Origin: a bacterium
Lineage (GTDB): Bacteria > Electryoneota > Electryoneia > Electryoneales > Electryoneaceae
Length of the DNA: 64,000 bases
Reading direction: 5' to 3'
Assembly (NCBI GenBank): GCA_963675295.2
Contig: CAXXKJ010000002.1
Coordinates: 2,432,001 to 2,496,000, forward strand
In this document: piece after piece, positions 6,257 through 35,892 of the stretch
How positions within the stretch are numbered: the first letter of the stretch is position 1
Layout of the letters: the number at the start of each line of letters is the position of its first letter
Notes under the pieces: generated by a model
What the model was told of the DNA's origin: nothing
Seen by the model: the letters and a program-made list of their open reading frames with translations, nothing else
Databases searched by the model: none
Program-made: the position numbers and the translations under genes

Positions 6257-6278
6257 TCGGCAGGCATTTACACGACTC

Positions 6279-6458
6279 GATCCCTGCATTTCTTAGCGAC
6301 TTTGATTGAGAACCAACACTCTCAATGGAGGGAGTTCGGCTTCGTTTGTGGCGGGTAGGCCTTGCCGGCAACGGTTGAAGGAAACCTAACACGAATGAGA
6401 GGACACCCAGTTTGGTGAACTAAGCGTTCTCCAATCCACTCGCGGAAATGTGGGGATC
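6279..6458 (+). ncRNA. ssrS: 6S RNA
   Basis: ~180 nt between zapA and rny (known ssrS synteny); 5' GATCCCTGCATTTC (6279-6292) pairs with 3' GAAATGTGGGGATC (6445-6458) using G-U pairs, giving a long closed rod. Confidence 0.85.
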
Positions 6459-6510
6459 AGTGTTTTTCACCGGGACGGGAATCAATTCCGCCCGAAGGAG
6501 ATACAGCGAA

Positions 6511-22887: not shown

Positions 22888-23149
22888 AGCGCATCTTCCA
22901 GGCTGTGCAAACTGTCAACAGGAATCGTTCCGGCGAATCCGGACGATGGTCGGTGAAAGTACGTTGTCTGTCTGAGATGGGCAACTGCGAAGGGAGAAGA
23001 AAGGGGAAAAGCGGTCTCACATTGGGGGTTCGAGACAGCGAATTCTTATGGAAGATGGGAGCGAATTCGATTGAACCGGGGCGTGTTGCCGACTATCTTT
23101 CCAATTCCAACAGTTTCGCAGTTCCCGCCGACCCTAGAGGGGGATGACC

Positions 23150-24460
23150 ATGGATGAGGAGTTTGAGGTTCTGATCATTGGAGCCGGGCCTTCCGGCATC
23201 AGTGCCGCCGTCGCGCTTGCGAGAGCGGGAGTGGAAGTTGTGGTGCTGGAGCGTGGGGAATACCCCGGCGCGAAAAATGTGTACGGCGGCATCCTGTTCA
23301 CTCACCAGCTGCTCAAACTGCTTCCTGATGCCATCGACAGTGCCCCGTTTGAGCGTAATGTAACCCGCCGTCGTTTTGGCGCTCTCGCGGATGATCGTGA
23401 AGTCGCGCTCGACCTGAAGGTTGGCCATTGGCGCGAGAAGCCCTACAACCACACGATGACCGCGTTGCGGGGACGCTTCGACCGCTGGTTTGCTGAACAG
23501 GCGGAAGCGGAAGGCGCGCAGGTGTTTGCTGGCTTCATGGCCTCGGAACTGGTTGTGGAAGACGGCCGCGTGGTCGGCGTCAAGGTGAAGCCGGGCGACG
23601 ACGAGATGCGGGCGAAGGTTGTCATCTCGGGCGAAGGGGCCCAGGCGTTCCTCGCGCGCCAAGTCGGGCTGATGCCGCCGAAGTTGCCGCAGCGGCACAT
23701 GATCACCAACGTCAAGGAAGTGATCGGGCTGCCCCGTGAAAAGCTTGAGGACCGGTTCCTGCTCGAGGGCAATGAAGGCGTCGCGATGGAGTATTTCGGC
23801 GAGCCGGTCAAGGGCCACTTCGGGATGGGATTTGTCTACACCAACCAGGAGTCAGTGTCGATCGGGCTCGGGCTGACGGTGCATGACCTGATCACGTCGA
23901 AGGAAACGCTGAACGATTTCCTCGAGCATTTCAAGAATCTGCCGACGATCAGGAAGTTGATCGAAGGCGGCGAATCGCTTGAATATGCTGCGCACATGAT
24001 CCCGGAATACGGGTACAATCACCTGCCGAAGATGAGCATGCCGGGGTTGCTGCTGGTCGGTGACACGGCTGGCTTGATCAACGGCAGCGTTTATCACGAA
24101 GGCACGAACCTCGCGATGGGCAGTGGTCTGGCGGCTGCGGAGACGATCATCGCCGCCAAGGAAGCGGGTCAGGACATCGGTTCGGCCGAAGCGCTGGCGT
24201 CCTACAAGGACAAGCTGGAAAACAACTTCGTGCTCAAGGACATGAAGAAGTTCCGCAAGATTCCGGACTTCTTCAACAGCAAGCCACACATTCTGCGGGA
24301 TTACCCGAAACATGTGACGCAATGGCTGGAAGACTACTTCACCATCAGTGAAACTCCCAAGGACGAGGTCGAACGGGGCATTATCAACAAGGTCAAGAAG
24401 GATATCGGCCTGTTCTCGTTCGCCAAGGATATGTTTGGAGTGGGGAGGTCGGTACGATGA
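23150..24460 (+). CDS. fixC: FixC-family FAD-dependent oxidoreductase (ETF-quinone oxidoreductase-like)
   Basis: IIGAGPSG, ERGEYPGAKNVYGG, APFER, FDRWFA, EYAAHMIPE, VGDTAG; followed by FixX. Confidence 0.88.
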   Translation: MDEEFEVLIIGAGPSGISAAVALARAGVEVVVLERGEYPGAKNVYGGILFTHQLLKLLPDAIDSAPFERNVTRRRFGALADDREVALDLKVGHWREKPYNHTMTALRGRFDRWFAEQAEAEGAQVFAGFMASELVVEDGRVVGVKVKPGDDEMRAKVVISGEGAQAFLARQVGLMPPKLPQRHMITNVKEVIGLPREKLEDRFLLEGNEGVAMEYFGEPVKGHFGMGFVYTNQESVSIGLGLTVHDLITSKETLNDFLEHFKNLPTIRKLIEGGESLEYAAHMIPEYGYNHLPKMSMPGLLLVGDTAGLINGSVYHEGTNLAMGSGLAAAETIIAAKEAGQDIGSAEALASYKDKLENNFVLKDMKKFRKIPDFFNSKPHILRDYPKHVTQWLEDYFTISETPKDEVERGIINKVKKDIGLFSFAKDMFGVGRSVR

Positions 24461-24747
24461 CTGACAATCCAAAGACGATAGAAGACAAGCTGGGCCTGCT
24501 GCAATATCGCACGGACGAAGGGAATTCTCACATCACGGTTGACCAGGAGAAGTTCAAGGCAGATCCAATAAAAGCCATCCTGTATGCGTGCCCGGCGAAA
24601 GTCTATGTGGAAGACACACAAACCGGCGAATGTATCGTCAACTACGAGAACTGCGTCGAATGTGGCACCTGTCATGTCGTAGCCCCAGACTATGTGCGAT
24701 GGTTTTATCCCGAGGGCGGAAAGGGCGTTCACTACCGTTACGGTTGA
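24457..24747 (+). CDS. fixX: FixX-family ferredoxin
   Basis: CPAKVY, CVECGTC, WFYPEGGKGVHYRYG C-terminus. Confidence 0.88.
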   Translation: MTDNPKTIEDKLGLLQYRTDEGNSHITVDQEKFKADPIKAILYACPAKVYVEDTQTGECIVNYENCVECGTCHVVAPDYVRWFYPEGGKGVHYRYG

Positions 24748-25571
24748 TGCCTGAAAATCGACGACTGCCCTTTCTGCCGCTTCTGATTTTCCTTCTCGTA
24801 CTGCTCACCGCGCAGGGAGTGCAGGCACAACCGCAAACGGGCAGTGAACCGGTTGACCGGATCGAACAGTATTATCTCGAAGGACGCCTCGACAAGGCTG
24901 AGCTGGAAGCACTCCGTCTGCTCAACCGTCCGACCGGCCTGACCGAGTTCGAGCGAGGTGAACTCTGCCGCATTCTAGGATTTACGTCCGTTGCCCGGGA
25001 CGAAACCGAACAAGCGAAACAGTACTTTCGTACAGCGTTTCAGTACAATCCGAATATGCGGCTGGACCGGAACCTGACCTCACCGAAAATCCTCTCGGTG
25101 TTTGATGAGGCAAGGATCGAGTTCAAGCAGGTGCGGATTCTCGACCGTGAAGCGCTGGTTAACGATCTCAAGAGCTACCGGCTGCGTGTGGAAGGCGGGG
25201 TACGCTCGCTTCTGTTCCCGGGTCTTGGCCAGTTGCACAAGGGTCACAAGCTTCGCGGCAACATGATGCTCGGCGCGACCGGGATCGCGATCGTGGGGCT
25301 GGTGTATTCGCACGTAATGGTGCTGGATGCCGAGGACCGCTACACGCAAAGCGAAGACCCGATCAGCGCCCAATCCAACTACGACGACTACCTCACCTAC
25401 TGGCAGTGGCGGTACAGCTTTGGCTACGCCATCGCGGCGGTGTGGATCGGCTCAACGCTGGACGCGTTCCTGTCGCCGCCTGCCGAATCAGCGTACGACC
25501 GGATTACGATTGAACTGGCGTACGATCCGCAGTCACGGACTCCAATGGCGGGACTGGCATTCCACTTTTAA
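24747..25571 (+). CDS. Secreted/membrane hypothetical protein (TPR-like helices plus SLLFPGLGQ motif)
   Basis: ATG overlaps fixX stop; signal peptide; TPR-like segment; RSLLFPGLGQLHKG motif and two hydrophobic helices; ends in aromatic F. Confidence 0.65.
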   Translation: MPENRRLPFLPLLIFLLVLLTAQGVQAQPQTGSEPVDRIEQYYLEGRLDKAELEALRLLNRPTGLTEFERGELCRILGFTSVARDETEQAKQYFRTAFQYNPNMRLDRNLTSPKILSVFDEARIEFKQVRILDREALVNDLKSYRLRVEGGVRSLLFPGLGQLHKGHKLRGNMMLGATGIAIVGLVYSHVMVLDAEDRYTQSEDPISAQSNYDDYLTYWQWRYSFGYAIAAVWIGSTLDAFLSPPAESAYDRITIELAYDPQSRTPMAGLAFHF

Positions 25572-35038: not shown

Positions 35039-35115
35039 TGGTCGGGGTGACTGGATTTGAACCAGCGACCCCCTACTCCCGAAGCAGGTGCGCTACCGGG
35101 CTGCGCTACACCCCG
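35039..35115 (-). tRNA. tRNA-Pro(CGG), CCA encoded
   Basis: Minus strand CGGGGTGTAGCGCAGCCCGGTAGCGCACCTGCTTCGGGAGTAGGGGGTCGCTGGTTCAAATCCAGTCACCCCGACCA; anticodon CGG. Confidence 0.97.
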
Positions 35116-35145: not shown

Positions 35146-35174
35146 ATTATAGACTCCTCGACCGGCTCTGTCAA
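35146..35174 (-). promoter_or_regulatory. Consensus sigma70 promoter for tRNA-Pro
   Basis: Minus strand TTGACA-N17-TATAAT, exact consensus. Confidence 0.9.
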
Positions 35175-35237
35175 TGCCGTTTCTCCCCGCAAGAGACACC
35201 ATCTAAGACGACCCGCAACCCGTGAAAATCAGGGCAT

Positions 35238-35269
35238 AAAAAGAGGAAACCGGCCGGAGGCCGGTTTCC
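35238..35269 (-). terminator. Intrinsic terminator (second, minus strand)
   Basis: GGAAACCGGCC-TCC-GGCCGGTTTCC followed by TCTTTTT on the minus strand. Confidence 0.8.
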
Positions 35270-35318
35270 CTGGCATGGGGACAGCGTTAAGGGGATTACG
35301 CTGTATAGGGGTCGTAGT

Positions 35319-35621
35319 AAAAAAGAGCCGGTGAACTCACGGAAACCGTTGGGATAGGAATCACCGGCTCTTCAGCCTGAACCCGTGCGAGTGAACCGTG
35401 CAAATCAAATGCGCCCATCGTCGGACAGCAGTCAGTCGTCAAATCATGGGAGAAGATGCTCGTCAGCAGTGCAAGGTGGCCCGTGCAGGAATCAGTGCGT
35501 GTCAACCGTACAGTGTTCAGTGCGTGTTAACCGCTCAGGTAACCGTGCGTGTAAGCAGTAGCGTCTCGCCGATGGATGCTGTGAAAGAACCAAACCGTAA
35601 CTCGTGCAACTCAGGGTTCAC
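35319..35621 (-). ncRNA. Candidate sigma-54-dependent sRNA with repeated GCAC/CGGUU motifs
   Basis: Lies between a -24/-12 promoter and a terminator (AGAGCCGGTGA...TCACCGGCTCT plus T-run); no RBS-led ORF; 8 GCAC and 6 CGGUU copies; 5' UGAACCC pairs with GGGUUCA just before the terminator. Confidence 0.6.
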
Positions 35622-35630
35622 TCGTACACG

Positions 35631-35647
35631 CTGCAATTCATATGCCA
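35631..35647 (-). promoter_or_regulatory. sigma-54 (RpoN) -24/-12 promoter
   Basis: Minus strand TGGCAT-ATGAA-TTGCA versus consensus TGGCAC-N5-TTGC(A/T); GG and GC correctly spaced. Confidence 0.75.
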
Positions 35648-35857
35648 TCGACTCAAAATCGGACATCCGGGTGGGGTATTTCGGGGCGAAACGTGAAGCA
35701 AATGTCAGTCCAGAATGTTAGCGTCGTGTTAAGAGGCCGTCCTGATTAAGGGATACAGCCAAATTCACAAGCTGTGGCGCGAAGGAGCCGCTCTGGCTCT
35801 CGGGGGACTGAAGCGGGCAGTCATTCTCACAGGCAACGGGATCTGACCGTGAATCTC

Positions 35858-35892
35858 GTGCATATCGTGCACAGCGCGCGCAAAAAATGCAC
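35858..35892. promoter_or_regulatory. Tandem palindromic sites, putative enhancer (UAS) for a sigma-54 activator
   Basis: GTGCA-TATCG-TGCAC (35858-35872) and GCGCA-AAAAA-TGCAC (35878-35892), 20 bp apart, ~240-270 bp upstream of the predicted start. Confidence 0.6.

Follow-up and report, generated by a model that had tools for sequence, protein, structure and literature searches.

A candidate sigma-54-dependent RNA with arrayed GCAC motifs in Electryoneota: anatomy, relatives across the phylum and a possible decoy function

Several induced regulatory RNAs invite comparison with the one described here: the crcZ gene adjoins cbrB, the CsrB/Rsm RNAs depend on GacA/UvrY and on a promoter type other than sigma-54, NrsZ is built of three stem-loop modules of tens of nucleotides, and GlmY is a protein decoy. 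CrcZ is described as a sigma-54- and CbrB-dependent non-coding RNA of reiterated motifs that serves as a decoy for Hfq/Crc (PMC4063720). Here we describe a locus in a 64,000-nt stretch of an Electryoneota genome (assembly GCA_963675295.2, contig CAXXKJ010000002.1, positions 2,432,001 to 2,496,000; hereafter the window) whose minus strand carries a predicted non-coding RNA of reiterated GCAC motifs, the GCAC RNA, behind a sigma-54-type promoter and a pair of enhancer palindromes. Riboregulation in this phylum is almost unexplored; the table of a 2022 survey lists one annotated small RNA (sRNA) for Calditrichaeota (PMC9029176). Our search of the literature, which covered texts without their supplementary files, found no description of the GCAC RNA.

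CrcZ and CrcY of Pseudomonas resemble the GCAC RNA in having a sigma-54 promoter, a dedicated activator and reiterated single-stranded motifs, in the decoy action that we propose here, and in the position of the RNA gene beside regulator genes in part of the family (family f5 in our case). They differ from it in motif, which here is GCAC-N-G on an 11-13-nt lattice rather than A-rich, with no AANAANAA in any of the five close homologs; in the genome that contains the window (G000), where no Hfq gene was found; in the regulators, a GAF-type activator and a Ser/Thr kinase rather than a two-component response regulator; and in phylum, the GCAC RNA moreover having no Rfam match. With CsrB and RsmX-Y-Z the RNA shares a short-motif valency that varies across species, a motif copy in the terminator hairpin loop and the logic of a decoy, whereas GGA is absent from the RNAs of G000, G001 and G002 and occurs three times in G003 and six times in G007, no CsrA gene was found in G000, and the motifs lie on a regular lattice in linkers instead of in many hairpin loops. 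NrsZ of Pseudomonas, driven by sigma-54 and NtrC, is likewise an enhancer-dependent, modular repeat RNA as portrayed in PMC4253122, although the units here are unstructured, 11-13 nt long and up to 23 in number, with no sign of processing in the RNA-library contigs. Qrr (LuxO) and GlmY (GlrR) are alike in that each has a dedicated activator with just one or a few sRNA promoters to drive in a genome, but neither has the anatomy of a repeat array, the GCAC RNA matches neither in Rfam, and Qrr needs Hfq, for which G000 yielded no gene. The GCAC RNA works most like CrcZ and partly like CsrB/RsmZ and is a member of neither; its motif, its lattice, the pairing of a GAF activator with a Ser/Thr kinase, and its phylum are new.

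The GCAC RNA and its promoter module

The control region of the RNA (Table 1) was found where the first-pass annotation, made from the letters of the window, had placed it, with both GYGCA-N5-TGCAC palindromes and the TGGCAT-N5-TTGCA box present and consistent with a predicted +1 near 35621, from which the transcript would read GUGAACCC. The box agrees at 10 of 11 positions with the sigma-54 consensus TGGCAC-N5-TTGCW, and a TGGCAY-N5-TTGY box stands 5' of the RNA in 15 of 15 tabulated family members. The palindromes lie at -245 and -225 relative to the predicted start, with a spacer of ~210 nt to the box; judged by sequence only, this is the arrangement expected of the upstream activator sequence (UAS) of a sigma-54 promoter, namely inverted repeats, usually paired, 70-250 bp upstream. 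Single GYGCA-N5-TGCRC palindromes number 27 in the 4.81-Mb genome against ~18 expected at uniform composition, and the only pair spaced 10-60 bp apart is the one at this locus. The same genome has a single rpoN (Sigma54_DBD, one match, 177 bits) and 25 PF00158 matches, ~20 of them strong, that mark genes of bacterial enhancer-binding proteins (bEBPs). We infer from these features that transcription of the RNA depends on sigma-54, and we regard the locus as very probably a real sRNA gene of the sigma-54 type. The block CATTCTGGACTGACATTTGCTT in the enhancer-promoter interval, not kept in G003 or G007, departs from the IHF consensus and may be a site for an architectural protein, which is a guess.

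All eight GCAC copies stand at the positions annotated, as do the seven GCAC(G/U)G and six CGGUU, and the RNA contains no GTGC; the mean for GCAC in the window is 1.3-1.7 per 303 nt. The excess over chance claimed for these motifs is a real, strand-specific enrichment at the level of the hexamers, GCAC[GT]G with 7 copies (mean 0.195; runner-up 4) and ACGG[GT]T with 6 (runner-up 5) both being genome maxima, but not at the level of plain GCAC, whose count of 8 is unexceptional, another stretch of the window also having 8 and windows of the genome up to 11. In the variable part alone GCAC[GT]G occurs five times against 0.4 expected, a count that none of 1000 dinucleotide shuffles reached. Spacings between successive GCAC copies are 59, 25, 25, 12, 14, 71 and 13 nt, compatible with an 11-13-nt lattice. 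Only one other strand-specific cluster of at least four GCACGG exists in the genome, inside a coding region, and the bipartite motif unit has no other intergenic occurrence there. A search of Rfam 15 placed no family on the RNA, whether at the gathering score or with a cut-off of E<=10, which bears out its expected absence from that database. The non-coding nature that had been proposed also holds, as no open reading frame (ORF) is conserved across the five homologs and G000 and G001 differ by three single-column indels. As for the helix said to close the motif region into one large loop, its two segments, 5' UGAACCC and 3' GGGUUCA, exist and pair in the minimum-free-energy fold of four of five homologs, but it has no covariation support because both sides are invariant in those four, and G007 is without the 5' part.

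Homologs were sought by BLAST over 61 relatives and with a covariance model of the 3' domain (R1), built on the most conserved core of the RNA, over 16 family genomes; both searches found the locus in the same five genomes (G000-G003 and G007; R1, 5 of 16), which belong to two of 11 genera (g1 and g5). Common to all five are two GYGCA-N5-TGCRC palindromes 20 bp apart, the TGGCAY-N5-TTGC box, the core GCACGGUUCACNCGCACGGGUUCAGGC and the terminator with its ACGGUU loop, and the 5' and 3' ends of the RNA are kept as well. The four related genomes keep the features whose loss would have spoken against the first-pass proposal: palindromes, -24/-12 box, terminator and motifs. The central part of the RNA aligns poorly and is rich in indels, and the motifs are nevertheless retained: with the conserved 3' 112 nt removed, the five homologs hold 5, 5, 3, 2 and 9 GCAC[GT]G against 0.1-0.6 in dinucleotide shuffles. 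Strand asymmetry is strict, with 5-14 GCAC and no GTGC and with 3-8 CGGTT and no AACCG in the five RNAs, and since no complement exists within the RNA the motifs cannot be buried in perfect helices. The order of the locus is dapF, a TonB-dependent receptor (an insertion in G000 and G001 only), the RNA and tRNA-Pro. The terminator is present with a U tract ending at 35319 as annotated, its stem being 12 bp rather than the 11 reported; the stem is paired in 100% of cells of the alignment, one G-C to A-U compensatory pair occurs in two of five sequences, and the loop ACGGUU is invariant in all five, a loop of 26 nt that exceeded the limit of a simple terminator scan, which omitted it. With five close homologs the power to detect covariation is weak. 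A scan of genome contigs with the 3' core pattern returned nothing beyond the four relatives already found, and six metagenome-contig places matched by a looser pattern were treated as chance, having weak R1 scores and, in the four inspected, GC-rich, ORF-like sequence.

The RNA is present in RNA libraries and so appears to be made in nature. Four metatranscriptome runs from four studies, assembled from rhizosphere and wetland samples, shared a small part of the words of a 2.5-kb query, and each returned one contig lying wholly within the predicted RNA; three of these runs, wetland libraries of 2020, could stem from a single campaign. The ~300-nt transcript that had been predicted therefore has contigs inside it, which carry no strand or end information. 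All four end at 35604-35608, without loose ends and 13-17 nt short of the predicted +1, a weak hint as to where the RNA begins. No contig fell on the flanking TonB-receptor and LVIVD genes, a lack of cover that we do not count as evidence. Those over tRNA-Pro were set aside as other organisms' tRNAs because of loose ends and mismatches.

The phylum-wide family and its candidate regulators

We examined 79 species genomes from nine families of the phylum, in which a genome without a match is one where these patterns found nothing rather than one that lacks the RNA. A strict motif-cluster pattern matched 8 of 79 genomes, its reversed control matching only G008, and this count is a lower bound, since G000 and G003 themselves fail the pattern. 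In the new loci the cluster again lies 3' of a TGGCAT-N5-TTGC box with RYGCA-N5-TGCAC palindromes upstream, and the RNAs hold 11-23 GCAC over several hundred nucleotides (ends approximate). The control-module pattern GCA-N5-TGCAC-N50-70-TGGCAY-N5-TTGY matched 20 places distributed over 19 of the 79 genomes, almost without exception one in each, against one match for its reversed control; 11 of 13 further module places lead into stop-rich, GCAC-bearing sequence, and most of these end with a hairpin and a T tract. Altogether the RNA was recognised in 26 of 79 genomes and five of nine families (f1 7, f3 7, f5 7, f6 4, f9 1), and with these patterns none was recognised in f2, f4, f7 or f8. Membership across families is proposed on the promoter module, position and motifs, RNA ends outside the genus of G000 being approximate. 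None of six further members (five larger ones and that of G007) matched Rfam at E<=1.

The larger sample sharpens the motif. Across 25 members there are 211 GCAC against 11 GTGC (approximate RNA ends, some flank counted), and 79 of 187 consecutive GCAC spacings are 11-13 nt. Placed at random 2000 times, the copies yielded 10.6 such spacings on average and never more than 22. Spacings of 13 nt are the commonest, and a further peak lies at 24-25 nt. Within the 13-nt unit information resides only at GCAC, G at +6, UU at +7/+8 and C at +11, with little in the spacer, and all four bases occur about equally often before GCAC (C 54, G 54, T 53, A 50). The refined motif is GCAC-N-G, often GCACGGUU, on an 11-13-nt lattice, in 0-23 copies per RNA, the short forms of f5 (~180 nt) carrying 0-3.

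A side observation concerns the f3 members. The long f3 RNAs (L067, L094, L095, L098, L099, L100) share a conserved 3' block with ...GCCCGGGUAUCG... and ...CAACCCGCUGAUGAG...ACGAUC that is absent from the window RNA and is possibly an added structured domain; L053, a shorter stretch of the G050 locus that is also represented by L067, has no Rfam match at E<=1.

Gene order in f5 points to the regulators. In all six readable loci of that family (the seventh, in G029, is interrupted by contig ends) the order is a GAF-AAA+-HTH_8 activator, a Ser/Thr kinase with a PEGA domain, a gene of ~230 aa that we call X, the TGCAC sites, the sigma-54 box and the RNA. No bEBP gene lies close to the RNA in G000, a genome that has orthologs of all three genes. 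Its activator ortholog (G000:C2:4277544-4279088) is full-length at 53% identity and scores 520 bits, the next paralog reaching 289; it has a nearly identical helix-turn-helix (HTH) and is directly adjoined by the kinase ortholog. Orthologs of the activator occur in 74 of 79 genomes at E<=1e-100, and by NCBIfam its architecture is NifA-like, although it falls below every equivalog cut-off. Weak TPR and DUF5683 signals are found in X, a membrane protein. In 11 of 22 further loci, comprising all seven f3 RNA loci together with G008, G015, G029 and G062, a homolog lies directly 5' of the promoter module; this position is seen in families f3, f5 and f9 and in genus g6. X was also considered as a part of the kinase and rejected, as BLASTP of the 327-aa protein of G000 against both kinases was empty and X is a separate gene in f5. 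On balance, we judge from gene order and sequence that the GAF-AAA+-HTH_8 protein is probably the activator of this promoter. The gene order in kin, the conserved HTH alongside a conserved half-site, and the single-copy module together suggest that kinase, X and activator form a sensory cascade.

In G038 (L097) and G062 (L107) the module of TGCAC site and sigma-54 box precedes ORFs with signal-peptide-like starts, with no RNA, so the activator may also drive genes for secreted proteins in some genomes. A lone palindrome beside another bEBP gene of G000, met in the screen of palindromes, proved to be a sigma-54 box, TGGCGCAACACTTGCA (G000:C2:2787481-2787496, outside the window), directly 3' of that gene and 5' of a 619-aa ORF.

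Proposed mode of action and alternatives

With a promoter and terminator of its own, no ORF, and motifs that perfect internal pairing could not sequester, the RNA is one that we take to act in trans. In the mechanism that we propose, the activator, probably acting with the neighbouring Ser/Thr kinase and the TPR/DUF5683-like membrane protein, would bind the two palindromes (35858-35892) and fire sigma-54 RNA polymerase at the box at 35647-35632, and transcription would stop at the hairpin and U tract at 35372-35319. The product would be a short member of a phylum-wide family of quasi-periodic, single-stranded GCAC-N-G units 11-13 nt apart, and the induced array would bind and titrate a factor recognising GCAC-N-G, releasing that factor's other targets; most probably the factor would be an oligomeric protein from a family whose RNA binding has yet to be recognised. 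Multivalent decoy action of this kind is the reading that we favour, with slightly less than an even chance. It is favoured by motif turnover with conserved motif identity, by copy numbers of up to 23, by the copy in the terminator loop, and by a lattice that outlasts divergence of the spacers, pointing to a constraint of geometry, for instance from an oligomeric binder.

Several observations weigh against this proposal. Among RNA-binding families searched in G000, which is 92.8% complete, no gene for Hfq, ProQ, CsrA (PF02599) or RRM_1 was found and KhpA matched only under its cut-off, leaving no partner candidate, so that the decoy model requires a protein not yet recognised; the apparent lack of Hfq, ProQ, CsrA and RRM in the phylum was checked in G000 only. 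The RRM partner suggested in the first-pass annotation is accordingly not supported, while its cold-shock-type alternative finds five CSD matches, the sole hits among these families, but nothing that connects such proteins to the RNA. The probability that a motif is unpaired in partition-function folds (0.31-0.52) is no higher than background (0.36-0.46), so that such folds tell little about accessibility. Some members have few copies or none (G029 0, G024 1, G042 2, G045 2, G019 3 GCAC), so that high valency is not a requirement across the family, and the short f5 RNAs are tied to the window RNA by position, promoter type and motifs without an alignment. Tandem duplication, and not binding geometry, could have left the lattice. 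The link between activator and RNA comes from gene order in one family, a set of related genomes that do not count as independent cases, and in G000 the activator gene lies 1.8 Mb from the RNA. Finally, the contigs give no expression level in addition to lacking strand and ends, and an RNA library may hold DNA.

The main rival to the decoy, an RNA that pairs through a reiterated seed (GCACNG / ACGGUU) with CNGUGC / AACCGU in mRNAs or in another sRNA, is in our view unlikely, though several features speak for it. In the short members a 5' hairpin and the terminator flank one to three conserved single-stranded motifs, which is the classic layout of a seed sRNA; the motifs have no internal complement and are hence free to pair, and Qrr, which is sigma-54-dependent, acts by pairing. 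So does sigma-54-dependent NrsZ, according to PMC4253122. Against this, words complementary to the motif show no excess near ORF starts in G000 (18 AACCGTGC against 23 of the sense word), 11-mer complements, counted without the ORF antisense to the RNA itself, come to ~40 where controls gave 26 and 40 (a crude count, from guessed ORF starts and perfect k-mers only), and the G000 genome has no anti-motif clusters. Arrays of 10-23 copies on a fixed 11-13-nt lattice also set the family apart from seed RNAs, among which we know of no such arrays. That same modular, periodic build would suit a precursor cut into unit-length small RNAs, or a ribonucleoprotein scaffold, and NrsZ is presented in PMC4253122 as a processed, modular, sigma-54-dependent RNA; the library contigs, however, span several units unbroken over 199-231 nt, and no processing enzyme is tied to the locus. 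Units of 11-13 nt are, to our knowledge, too short for known stable sRNAs, and we consider this reading quite improbable.

Two further readings are far less probable. A feedback decoy for the transcription machinery, in which the RNA would bind its own activator or sigma-54, draws on the resemblance of the UAS half-site TGCRC to the RNA motif NGCAC and on GCACGGTT, which falls within the Geobacter RpoN promoter consensus TTGGCACGGTTTTTGCT as given in PMC2725144. The randomness of the base before GCAC shows that neither TGCAC nor GGCAC is selected, candidate sigma-54 boxes of G000 are mostly TGGCAT without a following GG, and the modal GCAC spacing is 13 nt against the 11 of -24/-12; on these three grounds we rejected mimicry of promoter or enhancer by the RNA. 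HTH and RpoN-box domains, moreover, bind duplex DNA, which makes this reading very unlikely indeed. Least probable of all is a locus without function as RNA, whether a DNA-level repeat, a leader of tRNA-Pro (which lies 200 nt downstream) or a small protein gene. A leaderless GTG frame does open at +1 in three of five homologs (28, 42 and 33 aa), but these frames vary in length and end, are lost in the other two and are confronted by the three indels between G000 and G001; between the RNA and tRNA-Pro lie two terminators and a perfect promoter, family members elsewhere have no downstream tRNA, and strict strand asymmetry together with the place between promoter and terminator indicates an RNA.

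Extended to the phylum, the decoy reading would make the GCAC RNA part of a global post-transcriptional switch of the phylum's own, in which a eukaryote-like Ser/Thr kinase and the GAF activator induce a lattice RNA whose periodic sites, 11-13 nt apart, would wrap around or line an oligomeric RNA-binding protein of an unrecognised family and so titrate it, a third kind of sponge beside Csr/Rsm and Crc/Hfq; we think this possible but rather doubtful. It would show sigma-54 signalling turned into post-transcriptional control outside Proteobacteria. The family is defined with a single-copy promoter module, a probable sensor-kinase-activator cascade and a sharp repeated motif, and since Hfq, ProQ, CsrA and RRM were not found and KhpA fell below its cut-off, the RNA is a ready bait for a new RNA-binding protein.

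Neighbouring elements

Table 1. Features of the GCAC RNA locus and of its surroundings, in window coordinates.
Feature	Coordinates	Strand	Details
Predicted non-coding RNA, ~303 nt	35319..35621	-	8 GCAC (7 GCACKG), 6 CGGUU
Putative distal enhancer (UAS) palindrome	35878..35892	-	minus strand GTGCATTTTTTGCGC; plus strand GCGCAAAAAATGCAC
Putative proximal enhancer palindrome	35858..35872	-	20 bp from distal one; minus strand GTGCACGATATGCAC; plus strand GTGCATATCGTGCAC
Block CATTCTGGACTGACATTTGCTT, enhancer-promoter interval	35695..35716	-	kept in 3/5 homologs (G000, G001, G002)
Predicted sigma-54 promoter, -24/-12 box TGGCATATGAATTGCA	35632..35647 (35647-35632)	-	GG-N10-GC spacing
Most conserved core GCACGGUUCACUCGCACGGGUUCAGGC	35375..35401	-	two motif units 13 nt apart; nearly invariant in 5/5 homologs
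Intrinsic terminator	35319..35372	-	12-bp stem (35372-35361 with 35334-35323), 26-nt loop with ACGGUU, then T6 35324-35319
RNA-library contigs	35374-35604 (0 differences), 35383-35608, 35408-35606, 35388-35608		199-231 nt
Conserved hairpin and second terminator	35235..35318	-	CAGCG...CGCUG, variable loop length, then CCCCAUGC, then strong second terminator (35270-35244)
Promoter of tRNA-Pro	35146-35174	-	perfect TTGACA-17-TATAAT
tRNA-Pro(CGG)	35039-35115	-	Rfam match; ~200 nt 3' of RNA
X of G000, 327-aa membrane protein	24588-25571	+	10 kb from RNA, opposite strand
FAD oxidoreductase beside X	23144-24460	+	same neighbour in G008 and G015
6S RNA (RF00013)	6278-6460	+	53 bits

The element directly 3' of the terminator is kept in five of five homologs and occurs once in the genome; none of the RNA-library contigs lies over it, and it could arise by read-through from the RNA or stand as an element of its own. 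Elsewhere in the window, the RF00013 match exceeds its gathering score of 46.4, which means that an ordinary 6S RNA exists alongside the GCAC RNA in this genome. The T9SS sorting domains and CarboxypepD_reg-TonB receptors of the genome fit the FCB group.

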